Program-made: the position numbers and the translations under genes | Part shown: positions 5,448 to 37,373 of the stretch, piece by piece | Layout: every line of letters starts with the position of its first letter | How positions within the stretch are numbered: position 1 is the stretch's first letter | From: a bacterium | Lineage (GTDB): Bacteria; Patescibacteriota; Microgenomatia; Levybacterales; UBA12049 | Direction of reading: 5' to 3' | Assembly: GCA_021824155.1 (NCBI GenBank) | Contig: JAKALN010000004.1 | Span: 1 to 38,925 of the forward strand | Length of the DNA: 38,925 bases | The notes under the pieces: model-generated | What the model was told of the DNA's origin: nothing | The model's input: the letters and a program-made list of their open reading frames with translations, nothing else | Database searches by the model: none

Positions 5448-7817
5448 CTACGGAGTAGGAATAACAGAAGGAAGAGGACTTAAGGTCGCGCTTGGTGTTT
5501 GCGTAGGCGCCGGAGTTGGCGTTGGGTTATTGTTTGAACCGCCGGAATACTGGTAATCGGAAGTATCTGTTGGCGGATAATATTCGGGATGGTCCGCCGC
5601 ATAAGTTTGTTTTATCCATGCATTTATACCGTCCTGCCACCTATTTTTGCCGTCTGTTGAAATAGGGTCGTTCATTTTAAATACAATGAAATCCTTAGTA
5701 TCATAATCTCCCGCATTTATTTCTGCCTGATTTGCAAGTTTTCCGCCCTGATGTTTGGATATCTTAAGTTTTTGGTAAATTGCCGAAGGTCCCGTAGGCT
5801 GAGTGCCCTGTATAAAATACTCACTTCTGGTAGGCTGTCCGGGTACCGGAAGACCTCCTCCAAATGCGTCTATCTGCATTGCCAAGACATCGTCCGGTTT
5901 TTGCGGCGGCTCGTCCGGTTTTCCCTTTAAAACCGAACTCATTATTTTATTCCATATAGGAGCGGCACCGGTTATACCGGATGAAACTTTGCTCATAGGA
6001 GAATTGTCGTTATTTCCAACCCATACGCCTACTACATACGAAGGAGTGTAACCCATTGTCCAGTTATCCCTTATATCATTTGTTGTTCCGGTTTTTACGG
6101 AAACACTGGGGTGCCCGGCAACAACAAGCTGTGAATAAGGCCCGAATTCCATTGTCCTTGCGTTGTTATCCAAAAGGATATGGGAAATTATAAAAGATAT
6201 TTCCTGGGACAATTCCCTCTGGGGCGAAGGGGGATTATATTTATACAAAACTTTCCCATGGGAATCGTCAACTTCGGAAATTGAATACAAAGGCTGTTTA
6301 AGCCCTCCATTTGCAAAAACGCTGTATGCCTGCATTTCGTCTATAAGCCTTACGTCCCTTCCTCCCAAAACAAGAGAGTATCCGACGTCATTCATATTTG
6401 CGTCGGTCGGCTGCCAATTTGAAATCCCCATGTCATATGCTTTTTGCATTACGTTTTTTATTCCTACCATAGCCAGCATTTCAACTGCCGGTACATTTAT
6501 TGAATTTGCCAAAGCAAACCTAACTTGTATTGGCCCCCTGTATTTTCCGTCATAGTTAACCGGTATATAATCTTTTTCGCTGTCTGTTGCTTTAAAATTT
6601 ATGGGCACATCCATTAACAAAGTCGAGGCAGTATATCCTCTTGAAAGCCCGACCGCGTATGTAATCGGCTTTAGGGAAGAACCGGGCTGCCTGGACGCTA
6701 AGGCAGCATTAAAATTACCGTCGTTTTTTGTGTCAAAATAGTCTTTGCTTCCGACCATTGCCAAAATTTCTCCTGTTTTAGGATTAGATACCATAGCAGC
6801 TCCATTTCCCACCTTCAGGGTCTTATCTTTATCTATCTCTGTTTTTACAATATCCTCGGCATTTTTTTCGATGTTGTAATCAAGAGTTGTTTTAACCTGA
6901 AGGCCCCCTCTTTCAACCATCTGTTCTCCAAATTGGTCAACAAGCTGCTGTTTAATATAAAAGACAAAATGGGGTGCCTTTATCCCTGCCGTATTTTGTG
7001 TAAACTGCATAAATTTAATTTCTTTAATAGCCGCGTCCGCCTGGGCCTGGGTTATATGATTGTCCCTGACCATAGCATCCAAAACTTCCTGTGAGCGCTC
7101 TATATAATATTTGTTGCCGCTAAAAGGCGAGTAGGCAGTAGGGCTTTGAGGCAATCCGGCGAGTAAAGCACTCTGGGCCAGATCCAAATCCTTAACATTT
7201 TTATTAAAAAAGGTTTCCGAAGCCGCTTCTACCCCGACGGCAGAACCCCCATAAGGCACGTCGTTTAGGTACATTTCCAGTATCTGGTCTTTTGAGTATT
7301 TTTTATCTACCTGTATTGAAAGCATCAATTCCTTTATTTTTCTGGGTATCGTCTGCTGGGAAGTCAAAAGAACATTTTTTACAAGCTGCTGGGTAAGAGT
7401 AGAACCCCCTGAGAGCTGGCGGTATAAAATTAGGTTTCTGACTGCCCTTAAATACCCTGTTATGGAAAAACCCTGGTTATTGTAAAAATTCCTATCCTCT
7501 ATAGATACTGTTGCCTGCTGCAGGTATTTGGGGATATTATTCAGGTTTTCGTAGATTCTATTCTGGTCCTGATAAACAGAGTAAAGTAAAACCCCGTTTC
7601 TGTCATAAATTCTTGTTGAATCCGACTGCTGAGCCTCTACAAGTTTTCCCGGAGCGGGTAAATCCCTGCCGTACCATATAAACAAAACAGTCATCAGGAT
7701 TATAAGACCAATCAGTCCGAAAAACCCGTATTTGGTAATTTTACTTATAAGAACCATCCTGGAGGCATTTAAGGAGTATCTTTGACGTCTGCTTCTTCTG
7801 TGTCCGTAATCCAGCAT
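5448..7817 (-). CDS. Class A bifunctional penicillin-binding protein (PBP1A family), Pro/Thr-rich tail (start probably ATG 7817)
   Basis: N-terminal TM; transglycosylase EDRNF, GGSTLTQQLVKN, RKIKE; transpeptidase SSLK, SIN, KTGT; TGaTATACT lies 7 nt before ATG 7817. Confidence 0.95.
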   Translation of the reverse strand: MLDYGHRRSRRQRYSLNASRMVLISKITKYGFFGLIGLIILMTVLFIWYGRDLPAPGKLVEAQQSDSTRIYDRNGVLLYSVYQDQNRIYENLNNIPKYLQQATVSIEDRNFYNNQGFSITGYLRAVRNLILYRQLSGGSTLTQQLVKNVLLTSQQTIPRKIKELMLSIQVDKKYSKDQILEMYLNDVPYGGSAVGVEAASETFFNKNVKDLDLAQSALLAGLPQSPTAYSPFSGNKYYIERSQEVLDAMVRDNHITQAQADAAIKEIKFMQFTQNTAGIKAPHFVFYIKQQLVDQFGEQMVERGGLQVKTTLDYNIEKNAEDIVKTEIDKDKTLKVGNGAAMVSNPKTGEILAMVGSKDYFDTKNDGNFNAALASRQPGSSLKPITYAVGLSRGYTASTLLMDVPINFKATDSEKDYIPVNYDGKYRGPIQVRFALANSINVPAVEMLAMVGIKNVMQKAYDMGISNWQPTDANMNDVGYSLVLGGRDVRLIDEMQAYSVFANGGLKQPLYSISEVDDSHGKVLYKYNPPSPQRELSQEISFIISHILLDNNARTMEFGPYSQLVVAGHPSVSVKTGTTNDIRDNWTMGYTPSYVVGVWVGNNDNSPMSKVSSGITGAAPIWNKIMSSVLKGKPDEPPQKPDDVLAMQIDAFGGGLPVPGQPTRSEYFIQGTQPTGPSAIYQKLKISKHQGGKLANQAEINAGDYDTKDFIVFKMNDPISTDGKNRWQDGINAWIKQTYAADHPEYYPPTDTSDYQYSGGSNNNPTPTPAPTQTPSATLSPLPSVIPTP

Positions 7818-7824
7818 AACCATT

Positions 7825-7887
7825 AGTATATCAAATTTACGCCTATTCACAAACATATAGCCTTGCCGCAGGCAGGTGTGCTATACT
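7825..7887. promoter_or_regulatory. Divergent extended -10 promoters (PBP minus, tyrS plus) with a small palindrome between them
   Basis: TATACT on minus at 7825-7830, TGcTATACT on plus at 7879-7887; tgcc-GCA-ggca hairpin at 7864-7874. Confidence 0.7.
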
Positions 7888-7894
7888 CGCCTTA

Positions 7895-9064
7895 ATGGAC
7901 AAGATTGATGAAATTCTGACCCGGGCAACAGCAAATATCATTCCCGGCAAATCCGAACTGGAAAAACTTCTTAACTCGGGAAAAAAATTAAATGTTTACT
8001 TAGGCATTGACCCGACTTCAACAAAAATACATTTGGGGCATACAGTCGGCCTTAGAAAACTACAGCAATTCGCGGCTCTTGGCCATAACGTTACTTTTGT
8101 AATAGGGGATTTTACCGCACTAATAGGGGATACCTCCGATAAAGATTCGGAAAGGCCAAGCCTCAGCAAGGAAGAAATTGAGGAAAATTTTAAAACATAT
8201 AAAAAACAGGCGGAAAAAGTACTGGATTTTTCAAAAGTAAAAATCAGATACAACAGTGAATGGCTTAAAAAACTTTCTTTTGAAGATATCGTTAAGCTTA
8301 CACAGCATTTTTCGGCAGGGGATTTTACCAGCAGGGAACTGGTTAGGAAAAGGCTGAATGAAGGAAAAAAAGTAGGATTACACGAGTTTTTATATCCCGT
8401 AATGCAGGGATATGACAGTTATTTTATGGATACCGATATCCAAGTAGGCGGAACAGACCAAACCTTTAATATGCAGGCCGGGAGGACTCTCCAAAATGAT
8501 TTAAGGCATAAAGAGTCGTTTGTACTGACAACACCCATCCTGGAGGGCCCTGACGGCCGTAAAATGAGTAAATCCTGGGGAAACGCTATATGGCTTGAAG
8601 ACAAACCAAACGACATCTACGCAAAGGTAATGGCCGTAGAAGACAATTTAATAATCACTTATTTTACGCTCGTTACAAATGTTTTGTCATCAGGCATAAA
8701 GGAATACGAAGAAAGGCTAAAAACCGAAAATCCCATTAATATAAAAAAAGAATTAGCCTTTGAAATAGTAAAAGAACTTCACGGACAAAAAGAGGCAGAA
8801 GAGGCCCAGAAAGAATTTGAGAGCAGAGTTCAAAATAAAGAAATGCCTGAAGAGAAAGAAAAGGTTGAGTTCGATAGGATTTTTACAACAGAAGAAGCAT
8901 TAGTAAAAGCAGGCTTAGTTAAAAGCAAATCGGAGGTAAAAAGACTTATCGAGCAAGGAGGAATTACTCTTAACAATAAGACAGTTAGCGATCCAGGTTC
9001 AAAAATTGAAAACGGAACGCTAAAAATAGGGAAAAGAAGATATATCGAAATTGTGATAAAATAA
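7895..9064 (+). CDS. tyrS: Tyrosyl-tRNA synthetase
   Basis: GIDPT..IHLGH, YPVMQGYD, GGTDQTFN, KMSKS, C-terminal S4-like domain. Confidence 0.98.
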   Translation: MDKIDEILTRATANIIPGKSELEKLLNSGKKLNVYLGIDPTSTKIHLGHTVGLRKLQQFAALGHNVTFVIGDFTALIGDTSDKDSERPSLSKEEIEENFKTYKKQAEKVLDFSKVKIRYNSEWLKKLSFEDIVKLTQHFSAGDFTSRELVRKRLNEGKKVGLHEFLYPVMQGYDSYFMDTDIQVGGTDQTFNMQAGRTLQNDLRHKESFVLTTPILEGPDGRKMSKSWGNAIWLEDKPNDIYAKVMAVEDNLIITYFTLVTNVLSSGIKEYEERLKTENPINIKKELAFEIVKELHGQKEAEEAQKEFESRVQNKEMPEEKEKVEFDRIFTTEEALVKAGLVKSKSEVKRLIEQGGITLNNKTVSDPGSKIENGTLKIGKRRYIEIVIK

Positions 9065-9068
9065 GTTT

Positions 9069-9176
9069 ATGGAAACGTTTAGAAAACATCAATGGATTTG
9101 GAAAGTAGTCGTAGCAGTGGCGTCAATAGCCTTAGTAGCATCTTCCGTATTAGCCTTCCTTCCCGCACCGCGATAA
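9069..9176 (+). CDS. Small 35-aa single-pass membrane protein (not in the ORF track)
   Basis: METFRKHQWIWKVVVAVASIALVASSVLAFLPAPR fills the tyrS-recG gap almost exactly; basic N-terminus plus hydrophobic helix. Confidence 0.7.
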   Translation: METFRKHQWIWKVVVAVASIALVASSVLAFLPAPR

Positions 9177-9182
9177 AATTAT

Positions 9183-11195
9183 ATGAACTTACAAACACCA
9201 ATCAGAGAGGCCTCCAGGCCTTACAAAATGTATGCAGGAAGACTTGAAAAACTTGGGATAACAACTGTAGGAGATTTTTTATACCATATCCCTTTTAGAT
9301 ATGACGACTATTCTTTAATTTCAAAAATAGGCCGGGTTCAGGCAGGGGAAAAAATTACGGTAAGGGGGGAAATTACCGATATAAAAAATGAATATACCAG
9401 AAACCGCAAAAGGCTCCAAAAAGCAAAGATAGCCGATGAAACGGGAGAAATAAACGTTATCTGGTTTAACCAACCCTTTATACTAAACACAATTAAAAAG
9501 GGGGACAATGTTTCCCTGTCGGGAAAAGCGGATTTTTTCGGAAATAAACTTACCCTTACATCCCCCGACTACGAAGTAATATTTGGAAACGAAACAATAC
9601 ATACGGGAAGGCTTGTCCCTGTTTACCCGGAAACAAGAGGCGTGTCTTCAAAATGGCTAAGGCGCCAGGTTTACAAAATATTAAACGAGGAAAAAGAAAA
9701 CTTGAAGGAATTCCTTCCCGAAGAAATCATTAAAAGGGAGGGGCTAATGGATTTTAAGAAAGCCCTGGCAGAGATTCATTTTCCGGACTCAATAGAGCTG
9801 GCTAAACAAGCAAGAGAAAGGCTGGCTTTTGACGAACTGTTTTTGCTTCAGCTCTCTACCCTTGAAAAAAGGAAAAAATGGGAGAGTGTGGGGCCCGGAA
9901 TTAAGTTTCGACTTGAAAAATTTAATAAAAATATACAGGACTTTTTAGATTCCCTTCCGTTTGAGCTCACCAACGCACAGAAAAGAGCTGTAAAAGAAAT
10001 TTTTGCGGATTTGGAGGGAGAAAAACCGATGAATAGATTATTGGAAGGAGAAGTGGGAAGCGGAAAAACGGTTGTATCCGCTATTGCTATGTATCTGGCG
10101 TTTTTAAACGGGTACCAGTCTGTACTTATGGCTCCTACCGAAATACTTGTGCAGCAGCACTACTCAACAATCTCAAACCTGTTATTGCCATTTGGACTCA
10201 AAGTCGGCTTAGTAACGGGCAATATTAAACAAAAAGAAGAGTTCGACATATTGGTCGGAACTCATGCTGTACTTTCGGAAAAAATTAAATTTAATAATCT
10301 TTCCCTGGTAATTATAGACGAACAGCAAAGGTTTGGCGTAGAACAAAGGACAGCTATACGAAACAAAGGAAAAAACCCTCACCTTTTAACTATGACCGCA
10401 ACCCCAATTCCCAGAACCGTTGCCCTTACGATTTACGGCGATTTGGACCTTTCGCTTTTGGATGAAATGCCGGTTGGAAGGAAAAAAGTCAAAACATGGC
10501 TTGTTCCGCCTGAAAAAAGAGACGGAGCATATGCTTGGATAGAAAAAGAAATAAACGAAAATAAAACCCAAGCGTTTATAATCTGCCCTTTTATAGAAGA
10601 GTCGGAAAGCATGGTTACCGTAAAAGCGGCAACCAAAGAATTTGAAAAACTTAAAAGCATTTTTCCAAAACTTAATATCGGAATGCTTCACGGAAAAATG
10701 AAAGCGCCGGAAAAGGACAAAATATTAAACTCTTTTAAAAATAAAAAAATGGATATTTTAGTGGCCACCCCCGTTGTAGAAGTAGGGATAGATATTCCAA
10801 ATGCTACTGTCATAATGATCGAGGCTTCCGACAGATTCGGCCTTGCCCAGCTTCATCAGCTAAGAGGAAGGGTAGGAAGAGGAGAAATGCAGTCTTACTG
10901 TCTCTTATTTACCGAAAGCAAAAACGAAAAGACGTTAATACGCCTAAAATCCATGGAGAATATATTCATCGGGGCAGAGCTTGCCGAACTTGACCTAAGG
11001 CTTAGGGGACCGGGGGAACTTGGCGGGACAATGCAGCATGGGAATGATTTATTAAAAATCGCGGATTTTTCCGACTTTACCTTAATTGAAAAAACTAAAA
11101 AAGAAGCGGAGAAAATATTTTACCGGCTGGATAAATACCCTGTGCTTACCCAAAAAATATCCGGGATAAACGTTAAAGAAGTGTCACCGGACTAA
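9183..11195 (+). CDS. recG: ATP-dependent DNA helicase RecG
   Basis: Wedge domain WFNQPF, RLAFDEL, LPFELTNAQ, GEVGSGKT, DEQQRFGV, MTATPIPRT, RFGLAQLHQLRGRVGRG, DLRLRGPGE. Confidence 0.97.
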   Translation: MNLQTPIREASRPYKMYAGRLEKLGITTVGDFLYHIPFRYDDYSLISKIGRVQAGEKITVRGEITDIKNEYTRNRKRLQKAKIADETGEINVIWFNQPFILNTIKKGDNVSLSGKADFFGNKLTLTSPDYEVIFGNETIHTGRLVPVYPETRGVSSKWLRRQVYKILNEEKENLKEFLPEEIIKREGLMDFKKALAEIHFPDSIELAKQARERLAFDELFLLQLSTLEKRKKWESVGPGIKFRLEKFNKNIQDFLDSLPFELTNAQKRAVKEIFADLEGEKPMNRLLEGEVGSGKTVVSAIAMYLAFLNGYQSVLMAPTEILVQQHYSTISNLLLPFGLKVGLVTGNIKQKEEFDILVGTHAVLSEKIKFNNLSLVIIDEQQRFGVEQRTAIRNKGKNPHLLTMTATPIPRTVALTIYGDLDLSLLDEMPVGRKKVKTWLVPPEKRDGAYAWIEKEINENKTQAFIICPFIEESESMVTVKAATKEFEKLKSIFPKLNIGMLHGKMKAPEKDKILNSFKNKKMDILVATPVVEVGIDIPNATVIMIEASDRFGLAQLHQLRGRVGRGEMQSYCLLFTESKNEKTLIRLKSMENIFIGAELAELDLRLRGPGELGGTMQHGNDLLKIADFSDFTLIEKTKKEAEKIFYRLDKYPVLTQKISGINVKEVSPD

Positions 11196-19062: not shown

Positions 19063-19604
19063 GGTGTCACATTAGGACTTGTTACTGCAAAATTGCAGGG
19101 CCCGCCGCAGGAATTTGCAGTTATCCCGTTTGCTGCGATGCTCGGACACTCGTTGTTAACCAGATTCTTACAAATCTGCGGGTCGGACGTACCTCTATCA
19201 AGCGTAGCATAAAGATAATAAGATTGTCCAGTTGAATAGTAAACATAATTGTCGGAAGAAACAGGGTCTTTAGGAAGTAAATTCATATATGGCTGCCATT
19301 GGGTTCCCCAATCCGCAGTTGTCAAATCAAGCCTTACAATTCTGTAAAGAGGGGGGGTAACCGCAGAGTAAGACGGATATTTTCCGTTGTCCTGATAATA
19401 GGTTTCAAGGGCCCTTTGGATTTGGGCCAAATCCGATTTTCTTCTTGAATCGTTTGCTTTTTGAAACTGGGCAAAGGGATTAAGCGCAACTATAGATCCT
19501 ACAGCAAGAACAGAAAGAATCCCTATAACAACAATAAGCTCCACAAGCGTAAAACCTTTTTCTTTATTTGAAATTTGAAATTTGAAATTTGAAATTTTAT
19601 TCAT
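19059..19604 (-). CDS. Prepilin, GspG-like (start moved to ATG 19604, TAATG overlap with upstream stop)
   Basis: [17 protein letters not shown]|FTLVELIVVIGIL; KANDSRRKSDLAQIQRALETYYQDNGKYP; LPKDP. Confidence 0.9.
   Translation of the reverse strand: MNKISNFKFQISNKEKGFTLVELIVVIGILSVLAVGSIVALNPFAQFQKANDSRRKSDLAQIQRALETYYQDNGKYPSYSAVTPPLYRIVRLDLTTADWGTQWQPYMNLLPKDPVSSDNYVYYSTGQSYYLYATLDRGTSDPQICKNLVNNECPSIAANGITANSCGGPCNFAVTSPNVTP
19566..19593 (-). repeat. Perfect (ATTTGAA)x4 tandem repeat inside a pilin leader
   Basis: Four exact 7-nt units at 19566-19593. Confidence 0.92.
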
Positions 19605-27983: not shown

Positions 27984-28094
27984 AAAACTAAATTCTAAAT
28001 ACTAATATCTAAATCCTAAATAATGTTCAAAATTAAAAATTCAAAACGTTTAGGGTTTAGAATTTAAAAATTAGGATTTGCGACTGAAAGGAGA
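27984..28094. repeat. 7-nt-periodic inverted-repeat element with SD-bearing tail (homologue of 1803-1884)
   Basis: aaattct aaatact aatatct aaatcct ... tttaggg tttagaa tttaaaa attagga tttgcgactgaaaggaga. Confidence 0.87.
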
Positions 28095-28095
28095 T

Positions 28096-28728
28096 ATGGA
28101 CAGTTTTTTAATAACAGGGCCAATCCGGCAAACAAAAGACTACGCATTTGATTTTTTAAAAAAAGAAAAAATAGACAAAATAGATATAACCGTTGTCGAA
28201 TCGGAAAAAGCAGTGGGAATTGCCCAGGTCAAAGAATTCCGGAAAAAAATTTATTTAAAGCCTTATAAAAGCGATAAAAAAGCGGTAATACTTAAGGCTG
28301 ATACGGGGCTGACAACCGAAGCCCAAAATGCGCTTCTCAAAGTTTTGGAAGAACCGCCAGGCAATACGGTTATTGCAATTCTTATTGAATCTTTGGAAAA
28401 TGTCCTTCCTACAATTATTTCAAGATGCAAAATAATATCTTTGGAAAAAGAAAAGGGAGAAAAAGATCTAAAGGAATTTGAAAATATTTTAACGTCTTTA
28501 AAAAACAGGGGAGTGGGGGAAAGGTTAAAACTGGCCCAGGATTATTCCAAAGACAGGGAAACTGCATTGGAATTTTTAAAAAATCTAATATTTGCATCGG
28601 AAAACTTACTAAAAAATGACAGCGGGCTTTCCCCGACGGTAAAATTACTCCAGGAAACTTATAAGGAAATTAAAAATACAAATACAAACCTGCGTCTTGT
28701 AATGGAACACCTGTTCCTTTCGATTTAG
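28096..28728 (+). CDS. holB: DNA polymerase III delta' subunit-like protein, short form (start moved to ATG 28096)
   Basis: GIAQVK, KP..S..K.VI, LTTEAQNALLKVLEEPP, LPTIISRC, N.NLRL.ME.L. Confidence 0.88.
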   Translation: MDSFLITGPIRQTKDYAFDFLKKEKIDKIDITVVESEKAVGIAQVKEFRKKIYLKPYKSDKKAVILKADTGLTTEAQNALLKVLEEPPGNTVIAILIESLENVLPTIISRCKIISLEKEKGEKDLKEFENILTSLKNRGVGERLKLAQDYSKDRETALEFLKNLIFASENLLKNDSGLSPTVKLLQETYKEIKNTNTNLRLVMEHLFLSI

Positions 28729-31089: not shown

Positions 31090-31368
31090 ATGAAAAGAGG
31101 AAGAGAATCAGAACCATTCCAAAAACAGGAATATCTGCATTTTAAACATAAAGTGGTAAAAGACCGGATAAGGCAGGCGTTGTATAGACCGGAAGGACTG
31201 ACTTCCGAAGAGGAGAGGGAGTTATTCACACACGCAAATTTTGTGGAAATTTTGGTTTATTTTGGAGCTCCTTTACCTTTTGCGCTTAAAGCTCTTGGGG
31301 AATTTATACAATATTCCGATTCTATAATAAATAAAGCTCAAGATTTATCCAGGCCCGAAGGGTTTTGA
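31090..31368 (+). CDS. Small hypothetical protein, probably leaderless
   Basis: 92 aa; TATAAT 6 nt before the ATG. Confidence 0.65.
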   Translation: MKRGRESEPFQKQEYLHFKHKVVKDRIRQALYRPEGLTSEEERELFTHANFVEILVYFGAPLPFALKALGEFIQYSDSIINKAQDLSRPEGF

Positions 31369-31589
31369 TGGCGGTTGTTCCGTTGATTAACACCCTCTAC
31401 CAGCATATCGTGGACGTCCCCGAGCCTAAGCCTTCCCGCCCTTACCAATTCTTCCAATGCTCTTTGTTTATCTATCTCGGATTGTTCTTCTAGCCTTGCT
31501 TTTTGCGCCTTATTTCCGGGAGTTGGATATCCAATCAAGGCAGGATGTTCTTCGGGTTTAATAAATGTAGGCCGTTCTTTACCGCCCAT
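31338..31589 (-). CDS. Small hypothetical protein (start moved to ATG 31589)
   Basis: MGGKERPT...; TATAAT 10 nt before the ATG; short convergent overlap with neighbour. Confidence 0.6.
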   Translation of the reverse strand: MGGKERPTFIKPEEHPALIGYPTPGNKAQKARLEEQSEIDKQRALEELVRAGRLRLGDVHDMLVEGVNQRNNRHQNPSGLDKS

Positions 31590-31640
31590 AGTTGGGAATA
31601 TTATACCCAATTCAAAAGAATAAATCGAGGAAAATTTGGT

Positions 31641-32087
31641 TTAAAGCCACCTTCGGACTTTAGATTTATAATCTTTATAGCTTTGTCCGAATTTTTTTTC
31701 CAGAATTTTTTCCTCGGGGGGTATCAAATATTTATCAAAAACTAAAAATTCAATTATTACTACTATAAAAGGGGAGAAATCCCGAAAATATACGGCAACA
31801 CCTAAGGCAATTAAGTTAAGGCTTATATAAAAAGCATTCCTTGTATATTTAAATGGCCCTTCTGTTATTAAAATTTTTGGGTTGGAACCATAGGGGATAG
31901 GAGTTTTATGATGCATAGTAACAAATTGCCAGAATGAAAGCAGAAAACTAAAAATAATCAAAACCCAACCTAAATTCCTAAACTCCAAAGGGATTATTTT
32001 TGCAACGGGAAAGAAAAAATGGAGAAACACTTCCAAAATAACGCTTATTGTAAAAACAGTGGGCGGATGAATAATCTTTTCCTTCAC
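31641..32087 (-). CDS. Isoprenylcysteine carboxyl methyltransferase / PEMT family membrane protein
   Basis: IHPPT.F, LITEGPFKYTRNAFY, IPPEEK.LEKKFG..Y.DYK..VRRWL; TGtTATAAT 6 nt before GTG. Confidence 0.9.
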   Translation of the reverse strand: MKEKIIHPPTVFTISVILEVFLHFFFPVAKIIPLEFRNLGWVLIIFSFLLSFWQFVTMHHKTPIPYGSNPKILITEGPFKYTRNAFYISLNLIALGVAVYFRDFSPFIVVIIEFLVFDKYLIPPEEKILEKKFGQSYKDYKSKVRRWL

Positions 32088-32125
32088 AAGAAAATTATAA
32101 CATTGTTGTTTATTTGGGAGCGGCC

Positions 32126-32617
32126 TTAGCTAGGACCTCCGGGATAAAATGGATTATCTAAAAGTGGCCCATCTTCACTCCTAGTCATCTTAGTGGCAGG
32201 AGATTTGTAAGCTTTTTCAAAAGCTCTATCAACTTTTTCAGGATCCTGTGCGTCCTTTGCGCTTAGGATAGTATGTCCTACCCTAACCCGACCATCTTCC
32301 ATACCTCCAAACACAATTACCTTCTCTGTTGTTTCATGCTCTCGCCAACCTACGCTCCTAGTTTTAGTGTCCAAAATGATTTGATTACCCCAAATAGGCT
32401 TATTTATTACCCCTGCTAAGTTTCGTGCAATTTCCGGAACCACACTGTTTTCTAAAGCATGCCTTCTCAAAGCTTCTCTTCTGTCATCCTCTGCTCGAAT
32501 TAACCTTAACCTTTCTTCTTCTATTCGTTGCAGTTCCGCGCGGCGAAGATCTGCTCGTCTTGATTGTTCTTCTGCCCTTGCTCTTTCAGCTCTAAGTCTT
32601 TCAACAAATCCACTCAT
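32126..32617 (-). CDS. Hypothetical protein with N-terminal charged (E/R) helix
   Basis: 163 aa; TGaTATAAT 6 nt before the ATG. Confidence 0.75.
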   Translation of the reverse strand: MSGFVERLRAERARAEEQSRRADLRRAELQRIEEERLRLIRAEDDRREALRRHALENSVVPEIARNLAGVINKPIWGNQIILDTKTRSVGWREHETTEKVIVFGGMEDGRVRVGHTILSAKDAQDPEKVDRAFEKAYKSPATKMTRSEDGPLLDNPFYPGGPS

Positions 32618-32712
32618 ACAGTTATTATATCACTATTAGTCAAACTATAAGTTTAATTTAACGAACAGCCGGCTTTTAAACCAATCGTGGTAAAATTTAT
32701 AAAACTCTAGCG

Positions 32713-32729
32713 TCAACCCCTGGGGTTGA
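32713..32729. repeat. Perfect 17-bp palindrome
   Basis: tcaacccc-t-ggggttga just upstream of the first cassette-junction motif. Confidence 0.8.
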
Positions 32730-32735
32730 GCGGAC

Positions 32736-32771
32736 AAAATTTGGTTTTGGAGCCTCACAGTAGTATAATCC
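32736..32771 (+). repeat. Junction/promoter repeat, copy 1
   Basis: AAAATTTGGTTTTGGAGCCTCACAGTAGTATAATCC, 35/36 identical to 33581-33616. Confidence 0.9.
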
Positions 32772-32779
32772 CTTTTTAT

Positions 32780-33049
32780 ATGAATAATATGGTTGAAAAT
32801 CCACAGATAAATGAGCTTAAGGGCAGATTGAATGGGGAAACTTTCCGCTCTGCAATTTCCGGATTAGGAATGTCCGGAGGAATTATCGGGGGCTTAGACC
32901 TTATCGTCAAAGGCGTAGAACAACACGACGCGTTATCTGCTGCTATAGGAGTTTTTGGAGTTGCATTCGGAGTGACTAATTTAAAAAACTTCTTTTTTAG
33001 TATGAGACTCCTCAATAGAACAATAACCGAAATAGAAAAAATAAAATAA
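32780..33049 (+). CDS. Small glycine-rich two-TM hypothetical protein (start ATG 32780 or 32789)
   Basis: GLGMSGGIIGGL and AAIGVFGVAFGV helices; TATAAT at 32764. Confidence 0.7.
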   Translation: MNNMVENPQINELKGRLNGETFRSAISGLGMSGGIIGGLDLIVKGVEQHDALSAAIGVFGVAFGVTNLKNFFFSMRLLNRTITEIEKIK

Positions 33050-33058
33050 CCCCCCCGG

Positions 33059-33096
33059 AAAATTTGGGTTTTGGAGACCGGTTTGTGTGCTACAAT
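33059..33096 (+). repeat. Junction/promoter repeat, copy 2
   Basis: AAAATTTGGGTTTTGGAGACC followed by TGcTACAAT. Confidence 0.8.
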
Positions 33097-33103
33097 TGCT
33101 TAA

Positions 33104-33349
33104 ATGGCCGAAAGACTAAATCCGGGACCCGAACATTTAGGACTCGATCAATTACCGACTGACATACAAAACGCAAGTTGGGGAATTGTAAGATTTGCAT
33201 CCAGGATTCTTCCCGCACAAGGACAAACTCCGGAAGATACCAGAGAAGAACGTATGGCATTATTGGTTTCTCATTACACCGGAGAATTAGGAAAGCTTAT
33301 CCAAAGACTTGGAACCCCCGAAGAAATTACCGCGCTGTCTAAAATTTAA
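33104..33349 (+). CDS. Small hypothetical protein, leaderless
   Basis: 81 aa MAERL...; TGcTACAAT 7 nt before the ATG. Confidence 0.7.
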   Translation: MAERLNPGPEHLGLDQLPTDIQNASWGIVRFASRILPAQGQTPEDTREERMALLVSHYTGELGKLIQRLGTPEEITALSKI

Positions 33350-33352
33350 CAG

Positions 33353-33367
33353 AAAATTTGGATTTGA
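33353..33367 (+). repeat. Junction repeat, degenerate copy 3
   Basis: AAAATTTGGATTTGA, 3 nt after the stop codon. Confidence 0.6.
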
Positions 33368-33370
33368 AAA

Positions 33371-33580
33371 ACTTTTCTTCTCTTGTGCCGACAAGAAGAA
33401 GCAGAAACTCTCGTCTAGCCTTGTCTCCAGCTTTCAAGCTTTCGCTCGTTTATCGGGTGATTTCACCCCCTCCTCAACAAGTTTGTGAGGAATCCCCCTG
33501 ATGCACTCTCTCAAGCTTTCATGCAGTTGACAGCGGACAGACGAACAAACCGAAGAAACAGGAAAACAAATTTGGAAGGG
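33371..33580. other. Candidate structured non-coding element (ncRNA or folded ssDNA)
   Basis: Several hairpins (tcttgt/acaaga, gggtga/tcaccc, tcctca/tgagga, outer tcgtct/agacga); TCAAGCTTTC occurs twice; no convincing ORF. Confidence 0.45.
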
Positions 33581-33616
33581 AAAATTTGGTTTTGGAGCCG
33601 CACAGTAGTATAATCC
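33581..33616 (+). repeat. Junction/promoter repeat, copy 4
   Basis: AAAATTTGGTTTTGGAGCCGCACAGTAGTATAATCC. Confidence 0.9.
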
Positions 33617-33620
33617 GGCC

Positions 33621-33869
33621 ATGAGCAGAGAAGTTGATTCATCTAAGTGCACCGCAATTATGGAAGTAGGTCCAAGAGATAAGAGCGGACCCTATATCGG
33701 AATTTGTAAATATTTTGGCACAGGACATTGCTTGATGGACGAATATAAAGAAGGCCCACTTCCGCAAGACGCCAGGATAATCAGGGGCGAATGCAGAGCA
33801 GACTGGGAAGCGTTGAGTAAATTGGGAAAAATTCGCAAAGCCCTTTCAGATTTGGCAAAAAAGGGGTAA
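33621..33869 (+). CDS. Small 4-Cys hypothetical protein, leaderless
   Basis: 82 aa with C..C..HC..C, possible Zn-binding; TATAAT 6 nt before the ATG. Confidence 0.7.
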   Translation: MSREVDSSKCTAIMEVGPRDKSGPYIGICKYFGTGHCLMDEYKEGPLPQDARIIRGECRADWEALSKLGKIRKALSDLAKKG

Positions 33870-33925: not shown

Positions 33926-34894
33926 GTGACTAATAACATAAGCGATCAGACCGAAGAATTTGTAAAAAACTTTAGAAACTTAGATGAGGAAATCATACCC
34001 TGGATCGATGATGACGCTGTAGGATTAAGCATAATCAAAAATTATCCTGAAAACTCTTTATTCGTTCCTGCAAGAAATCTCAACGGAGAACCAGATTCTG
34101 TAGCACTTATAAAAATTGGTTATACTAATAGTAAAAATATAGAAAAAGAAGAAAATAATGTAAATTTATTTATTTCTATTAGTAAAGTTAGCCGATATTT
34201 ACTTAACAATCACTGGAATTACGATTTCAAAGATCCTAAATCCCCAACAGAAGAATCTCTTAAAAAAAGTAAAGAATCAAAACAACCAATTGATTTAGAA
34301 GATGCCCAGTACCAATATAACTTACCCACAAAAAGATTTTATAACTCTGAAAAGAAAAAATACGTTGAAGCAGGAGAAATTGTTGAGGAGATATATAAAT
34401 TACATTTAAAAACACTTAGGGCTGTTGGTTTTAGGGCTAAAATTAAACTACAAAAACAAATAATCGAATATTCCTATCCAATTAATAAATTATTAATAAG
34501 GACTAATTTCATTTTATTTGGAAGAAAAATTAAAGAATCAAAAAACTTTTCAACAGGAATATTTGAAACATATTCCCACAATGACCTTATCGATTTAACA
34601 ACAGAAAAAACAAAAATTTTAGGTTCAGATTTTCCAATAACAAATCAAACGGCTAGGACGTTTGTAGCTTTTATTACAGTTTTATTTTTATTTAAAATTT
34701 ATAGTGGACGAGATATATTAGGTATTATGTATTTAGTTCAAAAAAGTAGTGAGAATAATCTATTATTGGCCTCTTTTACGGCCACTTTATTATTTATATT
34801 TGACAGAGTCATTCCTCATTTAATACTTTTATTAGTAAATGTACTTATTAGATTGAGACTCTGGTTTATGTTTTGGAAAATAAAATTATCCTAA
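33926..34894 (+). CDS. Low-GC hypothetical protein with C-terminal TM helices
   Basis: 322-aa ORF; TGaTATAAT upstream; hydrophobic segments FVAFITVLFLF and LLLASFTATLLFIF..VIPHLILLLV. Confidence 0.85.
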   Translation: MTNNISDQTEEFVKNFRNLDEEIIPWIDDDAVGLSIIKNYPENSLFVPARNLNGEPDSVALIKIGYTNSKNIEKEENNVNLFISISKVSRYLLNNHWNYDFKDPKSPTEESLKKSKESKQPIDLEDAQYQYNLPTKRFYNSEKKKYVEAGEIVEEIYKLHLKTLRAVGFRAKIKLQKQIIEYSYPINKLLIRTNFILFGRKIKESKNFSTGIFETYSHNDLIDLTTEKTKILGSDFPITNQTARTFVAFITVLFLFKIYSGRDILGIMYLVQKSSENNLLLASFTATLLFIFDRVIPHLILLLVNVLIRLRLWFMFWKIKLS

Positions 34895-34904
34895 AATATA
34901 ATTT

Positions 34905-35372
34905 ATGACTACAAAAAAAATCATTATCGATTCTACGGAAATGTCCAATACGCTTTCTTCATACGCAAAAAAACTAAAGGAATCTGGAGTATTAAGAGAA
35001 CAATTAGCATCAGCGTTAATCTATGCTGGATTAGCAGAATATTTTTGCGATGAATTTATTAAGGCTTTAATTGATCAATTAAATTTAAAAAACCAAAAAG
35101 GCTCTGTTAATCTAAAATCAAAAATAGTTTATAAAAACGAAAACACCAATTTAGAATATGCTTTAATCAAACTAAAATATATAGAGTATCCTGATAAAAA
35201 CGAAATAGAAGAAATAATAAAGATTATTAAAGATGCACGAAATAATTTATTTCATAATCTTATAAGGGCTGGAGAGAAAAAAATAAACTTAAGTATAGAA
35301 ATAATAAAAATTCAAGATTATACTCCACTTCTAAGAGATAGATTAGCTCAATCTCTCATAAAAACACTTTAA
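34905..35372 (+). CDS. Low-GC helical protein with HEPN-like RxxxxH motif
   Basis: ARNNLFHN near the C-terminus; N-terminal helix ALIYAGLAEY. Confidence 0.65.
   Translation: MTTKKIIIDSTEMSNTLSSYAKKLKESGVLREQLASALIYAGLAEYFCDEFIKALIDQLNLKNQKGSVNLKSKIVYKNENTNLEYALIKLKYIEYPDKNEIEEIIKIIKDARNNLFHNLIRAGEKKINLSIEIIKIQDYTPLLRDRLAQSLIKTL

Positions 35373-35417: not shown

Positions 35418-37373
<1,956 letters not shown>

Follow-up and report, generated by a model that had tools for sequence, protein, structure and literature searches.

A repeated putative leaderless promoter module as a candidate recombination breakpoint in a variable islet of a Patescibacteria chromosome

The closest described counterpart of the locus reported here is found in T4-type phages. 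The elements called PeSLs are sigma-70-like promoters that occur in many copies, each AT-rich in its upstream part; they start at the stop codon of the previous gene and precede ORFans in hyperplastic regions, and recombination between them rearranges modules and gives rise to mini-circles (Arbiol et al. 2010, PMC2839356). Here we analyze a window of 38,925 bp, the entire contig C3 (JAKALN010000004.1) of an 814-kb genome (38% GC, 32 contigs) of a bacterium from the order Levybacterales of the Patescibacteriota, in which five + strand copies of a short motif lie, all in the same orientation, between open reading frames (ORFs) of unrelated content, as an earlier note on this DNA had claimed. The PeSL cassettes of T4-type phages are reportedly also the subject of Comeau et al. 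2014.

We lean toward reading the motif as a leaderless promoter module that is reused in a variable islet and also serves there as a breakpoint for homologous recombination. The two kinds of array are alike in being built from copies of a sigma-70-like promoter whose −35 is preceded by an AT-rich part (copies 1, 2, and 4 in our case), and in that the repeat begins right after the previous stop codon and precedes small ORFans in a hyperplastic region. Recombination between PeSLs needs no dedicated recombinase, and we propose the same for the array described here. The array differs in lying on a Patescibacteria chromosome rather than in a phage and in having three full and two to three partial copies rather than about 50 per phage. 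It also has no hairpin in its 36-nt block, a separate palindrome being present 6 nt upstream of copy 1 alone, and no Shine-Dalgarno sequence. Promoter activity and mini-circles formed by recombination between the repeats are further marks of PeSLs; for the array in our window, they would be predictions.

Other known systems share some of these features. Leaderless sigma-70 promoters, as generally understood, likewise have a TTG at −35, a 17-nt spacer, a TATAAT or TGnTACAAT box, and an ATG 6–10 nt on, but a block of 17–36 nt common to unrelated genes goes far beyond what a promoter needs. Integrons and clusters of attC sites lacking integron-integrases (CALINs) resemble the array in their same-orientation short repeats between unrelated small genes and in a content that varies among relatives. 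They differ in that no IntI is encoded nearby here and the repeat has neither the imperfect inverted repeats R''-L''...L'-R' of an attC site nor its GTTRRRY core. Moreover, integron cassettes are mostly promoterless and expressed from Pc, whereas three of the four units here have their own promoter, of which the repeat is a part. In the Xer-dependent pdif modules of Acinetobacter plasmids, the sites are 28-bp, 11-6-11 dyads in alternating orientation. There, too, gene modules lie between short sites, on which a recombinase acts whose gene is located elsewhere, but the repeat in our window is a direct one without dyad symmetry.

Motif copies and their promoter context

The array comprises the following features.

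31631..31648, + strand: motif copy 0, partial (the 9-mer plus TTT, then ..AGCC); profile E = 9.5e-4
32736..32771, + strand: module copy 1, with A-tract, TTGGTT (−35), 17-nt spacer, and TATAAT (32764-32769); 35/36 identical to copy 4
32780..33049, + strand: ORF1, 89 aa, a small two-helix membrane-type protein; coding score 0.56
33059..33096, + strand: motif copy 2, which has one additional G and a C->A change and is followed by an extended −10 of its own, TGcTACAAT (33088-33096)
33104..33349, + strand: ORF2, 81 aa, orphan; coding score 0.72
33353..33369, + strand: motif copy 3, degenerate, with no −10 after it; profile E = 0.028
33371..33543, + strand: structured RNA element of about 170 nt, recognized by covariation and order-wide conservation
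33569..33576, + strand: extra AAATTTGG half-copy, 5 nt before copy 4
33581..33616, + strand: module copy 4, the same 36-nt promoter block as in copy 1, with TATAAT at 33609-33614
33621..33869, + strand: ORF4, 82 aa, four Cys, orphan; coding score 0.28, the best of six frames but marginal

The 9-mer AAAATTTGG is found exactly at 31631, 32736, 33059, 33353, and 33581, all on the + strand and together spanning 31631-33589, which bears out the earlier note's list of copies, including the degenerate one at 33353 and the partial one at 31631. Its 32 exact copies in the genome (both strands) comprise these 5 within 2 kb and 27 in the other 1.6 Mb. When up to 3 mismatches were allowed, a 17-mer of the motif had 8 matches in the window, compared with a mean of 1.96 in shuffled sequence, and none of 100 shuffles reached 8. 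An nhmmer profile of the five copies recovered, from the whole genome, those five alone, with E-values from 3e-4 to 0.03, the next match having E = 1. Further degenerate copies that had been suspected by eye at about 32108 and 33886 were absent among the profile matches listed and were dropped.

Two other details given by the earlier note proved accurate. Copies 1 (32736-32771) and 4 (33581-33616) form a block that is identical at 35 of 36 positions, TATAAT box included, and copies 2 and 3 begin 9 nt past the stop of ORF1 (33049) and 3 nt past that of ORF2 (33349), respectively. Sequence and alignment show that the five copies share a direct A-tract/TTTGG motif with neither dyad symmetry nor paired arms; imperfect inverted repeats are likewise missing from them, in keeping with the note's view that the motif is not an attC. 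Copy 0 sits in a gap flanked by two genes of the minus strand, with the stop of a PEMT-like gene 1 nt away, and faces the 3' end of a minus-strand gene. The idea that the motif is a spare gene end was rejected: copy 0 abuts the PEMT stop, but the likeness beyond the 12-mer is only about 20/30, and the other copies are on the wrong (5') side of the PEMT-like gene.

A promoter logo was derived from 230 sites in the same genome, each consisting of TAnnnT, 6–9 nt, and the ATG of an ORF of at least 80 aa. It displays TTG at −23 to −21 from the −10 and TG at −3/−2, which is the ordinary sigma-70 pattern. Leaderless starts are the rule in this genome, since 82 of the 402 genes with an upstream gap of at least 50 nt have a −10 that ends 6–9 nt before the ATG and only 50 have a Shine-Dalgarno-like word. 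In both copy 1 and copy 4, TTGGTT is in register with the genome logo and is followed, after a spacer of 17 nt, by TATAAT; the ATG comes 10 nt after the −10 in copy 1 and 6 nt after it in copy 4. Both thus combine the hallmarks of a leaderless sigma-70 promoter, namely a −35 TTG, a −10 TAnnnT at 16–18 nt, and an ATG near +1. Copy 2 has its own TGcTACAAT, with the ATG 7 nt after the −10, and the distance between its motif and the −10 is 4 nt greater than in copies 1 and 4. Judged by these positions, the motif in copies 1 and 4 appears to carry the −35 of a sigma-70-type leaderless promoter rather than being a bare junction.

The earlier note had described a repeated layout of motif, promoter, and ORF, with a promoter for every unit. 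This stands for three of the four units, in which a −10 box precedes the ATG by 6–10 nt, but not for unit 3 (33371-33543), which has neither a −10 nor an ORF with coding signal. A role of the motif as a genome-wide promoter element was rejected as well: the profile finds just the five local copies, and ATTTGG, with an intergenic/coding ratio of 0.82, shows no enrichment. A second upstream module is reused in this genome, a 55-nt leader at 28043-28097 that is ~91% identical to C15:17689-17743 and C15:18289-18343. It contains TTTAG-type phased repeats and the Shine-Dalgarno-like GAAAGGAGAT, and it precedes holB and two unrelated genes on contig C15.

The three ORFs were assessed by an in-frame dicodon score, the coding score listed above, which was 0.69 ± 0.26 for pieces of long genes and −0.17 ± 0.52 for spurious ORFs. 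All frames other than those of ORF1, ORF2, and ORF4 scored negative. Four close variants of ORF1 (95–97% identical) differ by conservative changes only (N/K, A/T, V/I, and R/K). Comparisons within the order involved 245 genomes, that is, 244 besides the genome under study. Weak relatives of ORF1 are present in 5 of these 244; at the 4 loci read, no motif was found upstream of the relative or on the strand of the ORF, a single 8-mer being located ~1.4 kb downstream in L095. ORF4 has no relative in the 244 genomes, and in a collection of 5.8 billion protein clusters ORF2 and ORF4 each matched nothing but themselves. The three ORFs are mutually unrelated. Given the in-frame dicodon scores and the conservative nature of the ORF1 variants, they look like real, compositionally native, and lineage-specific genes, and not like freshly imported foreign DNA.

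Variation among relatives and strains

The array lies in a variable islet bounded by the PEMT-like gene and gyrB, with the type IV pilus ATPase genes and holB further left on the contig.

31641..32087, − strand: PEMT-like membrane methyltransferase gene (Pfam PF04191, E = 6.8e-7), the conserved left anchor
32126..32617, − strand: 163-aa gene, familyless, with its own promoter (TATAAT, 6 nt, ATG); coding score 0.42
33926..35372, + strand: insert of two genes, for a 322-aa membrane-type protein and a 155-aa HEPN-like protein, lying after ORF4 and before gyrB
35418..37373, + strand: gyrB, the conserved right anchor, 85% identical to gyrB of the sister species

In the sister species G001, the block of pilus genes and holB, the PEMT-like gene (66% DNA identity), and gyrB are syntenic with the window. 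The interval between the PEMT-like gene and gyrB is 1.4 kb there and holds two other ORFs, compared with 3.3 kb here, and the insert at 33926-35372 is absent. One motif copy is present, ~8 nt past the stop of the second ORF and ~190 nt before gyrB, and the first 13 nt of our copy 3 are identical to it (13/13). No motif was found near gyrB in four other genera within the flanks examined. In G001, the interval from holB to the PEMT-like gene (L018, G001:C4 reverse complement, ~6500-10900) is another variable stretch; it is much longer than here and contains three paralogous winged-helix-like ORFs of ~100–110 aa and a PadR-like gene.

Strain variation was followed in the contigs of four runs (X1-X4) from one mine-drainage study, possibly the source sample. 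The major contigs of all four runs reproduce the reference across all motif copies. Minor contigs, which are ~12% diverged in neighboring genes (e.g., 34–50 other letters per ~320 nt), give seven joints relative to the reference.

32099->32736 (X2, X3): with 9 additional letters; lands on the first base of module 1; the 163-aa gene is absent
32099->33576 (X4): same junction letters as in 32099->32736; lands 5 nt before module 4 and continues as that module
33600->35454 (X2): from the end of the 19-mer of module 4 into gyrB; side of 24, weak
31332->31640 (X2, X3, X4): 36 other letters in place of 31333-31639, the stretch of the 90-aa gene and copy 0
33912->35397 (X2): a joint of depth 3.9, by which the genes of the 322-aa and HEPN-like proteins are lost
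Two other joints, to the left of these: away from motif copies

The earlier note had expected strain breakpoints to fall at the motif. This is partly so: in contigs of one study and with short sides, four of the seven joints reach a motif boundary exactly or to within 5 nt, and the locus differs in the sister species, but the other joints are elsewhere. With the same restrictions, the array may resemble PeSLs in this respect, too, in that differences between close relatives would map to the repeats. One left side (32099) joins two right sides, at modules 1 and 4, as would be expected after a deletion between the two 36-nt repeats. In X2 and X3 there is extra depth over 32723-33064, ending near copy 2 (85–95 versus ~50), and in X1–X3 a foreign contig matches only 33557-33593. 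The joints at module edges are suggestive.

The promoter and strain data can be brought together as follows. The motif would be the upstream half of a lineage-specific sigma-70-type promoter, in which an A-tract and a TTG at −35 are followed by a −10 and, 6–10 nt later, by the ATG of a leaderless mRNA, and this module would have been reused before three unrelated small orphan genes in the strain-variable PEMT–gyrB islet. It presumably fires as a promoter, perhaps with a bound protein, since 17–18 nt are kept where a −35 needs ~3. The direct repeats of 17–36 nt would provide crossover points for ordinary homologous recombination or slippage, by which whole promoter-plus-gene units may be deleted, duplicated, or swapped, like the PeSL cassettes of T4-type phages. 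Copies 0 and 3 would then be decayed leftovers. Unit 3 does not count as cargo here, being one copy of an order-wide structured RNA that is usually found at the 3' ends of genes. Homologous recombination between promoter modules can in our analysis explain the facts without a new recombinase.

The earlier note had arrived at a different mechanism, site-specific cassette capture, in which a recombinase whose gene lies at another place crosses over at the motif and units enter as circles with one site, giving an integron- or pdif-like array native to Patescibacteria. This would account for the same-orientation repeats that bound every unit, the non-coding RNA unit included, for the joints at motif edges, for three ORFs that are orphans unrelated to one another, and for the persistence of one motif copy at the locus in the sister species amid different neighbors. 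The enzyme, however, would have to act in trans. No recombinase was found on the 38.9-kb contig with PF00589, other recombinase families, or Pfam scans. The genome's one PF00589 match, a tyrosine recombinase at C14:8247-8774, and its one large serine recombinase, on C11, could serve. The motif itself lacks both dyad symmetry and paired arms, the 36-nt stretch common to copies 1 and 4 takes in the −10 and is longer than a core site would have to be, and the cargo has native dicodon usage. No back-joining (circular) joint is among the seven listed, although contigs could hardly show one.

Nor was the motif found as an element elsewhere in the genome, in the relatives, or in the species genomes, metagenome contigs, and viral contigs searched. 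A 19-mer with up to 3 mismatches has 46 matches in 40 relatives, compared with 26 for the reversed control. The 185,579 species genomes gave 14 exact matches and the metagenome contigs 16, every one of them in an unrelated taxon and context (one Pelagibacter coding site, for example, is matched repeatedly), and the viral contigs gave 0. With no recombinase on the contig, no inverted-repeat architecture, and no such element outside the locus in the collections searched, the capture system of the earlier note is not upheld, and we regard it as improbable. A broader proposal, that Patescibacteria chromosomes have a native system of cassette exchange with its crossovers in the promoter-bearing repeat, driven either by a recombinase in trans or by PeSL-like mini-circles, seems to us quite unlikely; if it were true, tiny genomes that bear a competence pilus would swap single expressed genes at fixed hotspots.

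The strain and species comparisons also bear on the view that the copies are neutral scars, functionless remains of a small number of duplications within a rapidly changing region, whose promoters would work without the shared part. Copies 0 and 3 do look decayed by their profile scores, and the genome has other families of short intergenic repeats. Nevertheless, the module appears unchanged over 35–47 nt in relatives that are ~12% diverged in neighboring genes, the sister species keeps 13/13 nt, and three copies stand in exact promoter context; we give this view little chance.

Several observations weigh against the combination of promoter module and recombination breakpoint that we favor. 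Homologous recombination accounts for the loss and swapping of units but not for the first arrival of unrelated genes between the copies. PeSLs contain a stem-loop, and the module has none. Copies 0 and 3 have no usable −10 and no ORF on their own strand, and the firing of the other copies is a prediction made from the bases and their spacing. The module promoters are missed by a scan for the sigma-70 consensus (4-of-6 rule), since TTGGTT agrees with TTGACA at no more than 3/6 positions. The strain joints are contig-level observations with short sides (24–47 nt) and a likeness threshold of 85%. Finally, the motif is not simply "the −35", since in copy 2 it sits 4 nt further from the −10, and the 17–18 nt that are kept, where a −35 needs only ~3, point to another role, in binding or in recombination.

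Binding is the essence of a further explanation, according to which the 17–18-nt motif is the site of one transcription factor that co-regulates a few lineage-specific genes; its repetition would be due to selection for their joint control, and the strain breakpoints would be mere gene boundaries. The motif overlaps the −35 or directly adjoins it, and this is where repressors and class II activators bind. Copy 2 keeps the motif intact at 16–17 of 18 positions despite a different spacer, a different −10, and the 4-nt offset. A tandem half-site precedes copy 4, at 33569, and, read on the minus strand, the −10 of the 90-aa gene comes ~29 nt downstream of copy 0. A candidate regulator, however, is not apparent among the neighbors: the only hint of a DNA-binding protein is a weak EutK_C-like match (E = 0.018) in the 90-aa protein, encoded left of the PEMT-like gene. 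Minor strains that have retained the module lack the 90-aa and 163-aa genes, there is no promoter at copy 3 to regulate, a regulon limited to 2 kb would be unusual, and the 36-nt identity through the −10 is left unexplained. We consider an operator or activator site unlikely as the full explanation, although a bound regulator is compatible with the promoter module that we favor.

A conserved structured RNA in unit 3

Unit 3 is a conserved structured RNA and not a gene; the 72-aa ORF antisense to it has a dicodon score of −0.20. The segment 33371-33543 is the sole part of the region that is conserved beyond the genus, with matches in 80 of the 245 genomes of the order, often at several places in each, and one copy in the genome under study. 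Related copies occur at loci L002-L008 and L068-L092, and exact matches are mainly in records titled Levybacteria or "Patescibacteria group". For an alignment of 36 copies, RNAalifold predicted 34 pairs, 25 of which have compensatory changes. On this structure 92.8% of the cells are paired, compared with 37–48% when partners are slid by 1–3 columns, and the covariation score is 0.435, compared with 0.05–0.09 in the slid controls; none of 500 shuffles reached the observed values. The + strand is favored by 34 G-U cells in the alignment.

The fold has a hairpin at its 5' side and an apical one, a long closing stem, and an inner stem of CGGG/CCCG. Its C-rich loop, which is invariant and unpaired, resembles the anti-Shine-Dalgarno tail of 16S rRNA. 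The 5' hairpin module is also found alone or in tandem. Rfam 15 gave no gathering-level match in the window, none on the element at E <= 10, and none at E <= 0.1 in 12 related loci. Viral contigs contained 0 matches for the RNA core. Literature searches on structured RNAs of the candidate phyla radiation and on leaderless promoters of Patescibacteria brought up neither this RNA nor arrays of the kind reported here.

Crude ORF calls of our own give 32 copies an upstream ORF, and in 25 of these the nearest one is co-directional; it ends within 60 nt in 14 of 36 copies. The genes that precede the copies are unrelated housekeeping genes, e.g., ftsA, rho, topA, and clp-type genes. In the window, the RNA follows ORF2 and is probably the 3' end of its transcript. 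More generally, we infer that the RNA is a 3'-end element transcribed with the preceding gene, with a role in RNA stability, termination, or protein binding. Target-site duplication at its ends was not detected: the longest flank repeats of 35 copies are distributed as in 300 mismatched flank pairs, and the AAATTTGG repeats that flank the element in the window are no general property of it.

With the transcribed intergenic repeats of the ERIC/IRU, Correia, and REP types, the RNA shares its multiple intergenic copies, a long imperfect hairpin, and a position mostly just downstream of co-directional genes. It differs from them in its strong covariation, in a core that is ~95% identical across genera, and in having no target-site duplication signal, no defined terminal inverted repeats, and no Rfam match. 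The RNA family is the most solid new item of this analysis.

The surroundings of the array and its implications

One feature that the earlier note had tied to the array, a perfect palindrome preceding it, is indeed present but turns out to be no part of it.

32713..32729, strandless: 17-bp palindrome with a C4-T-G4 core, 6 nt upstream of copy 1

The palindrome has 26 exact copies in 16 of the 245 genomes of the order, all from one family, compared with 0 for the reversed control, and one second copy in the same genome, at C23:16395-16411. Copies are also seen at L064, L065, and L066, and some copies are identical over 22–27 nt. Within FolD-like and CCA-adding-enzyme-like ORFs of G020 and G009, it lies in frame, in variable loops and in different reading frames. 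The palindrome is an independent, dispersed element. Two metal-sensor genes of the CsoR/RcnR family (PF02583) are present in the genome under study (C18:3542-3778 and C4:31153-31389). We presume a likeness of C4-N-G4 palindromes to CsoR-type operators, which makes this element a candidate only; it also lies inside ORFs.

Among ten islet proteins, none matches PHROGs and one matches PADLOC, weakly. The latter is the 155-aa HEPN-like protein of the insert, which has an R-x4-H motif and a weak CARF_HEPN match (E = 4.9e-4). To judge from these protein features, the two-gene insert at 33926-35372 may be a small toxin or defense module. Short tandem (GAAATTT)n runs are found in two intergenic places, at 19566-19596 of the window and at C9:91349-91379 of the same genome.

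Patescibacteria have tiny genomes and few known mobile elements, which raises the question by what means new genes are acquired and tried out. The structured RNA family is well supported, undescribed, and present in a third of the searched genomes of the order, which makes it a target for the RNA biology of uncultured bacteria. If our reading of the array is true, a reused leaderless promoter that doubles as a breakpoint would amount to "plug-and-express" at very low cost: an ORF would be expressed whenever it came to lie 6–10 nt after the promoter, and whole units could be lost or swapped between strains. Such cassettes have so far been documented in T4-type phages, and the array would extend the principle to a cellular chromosome.

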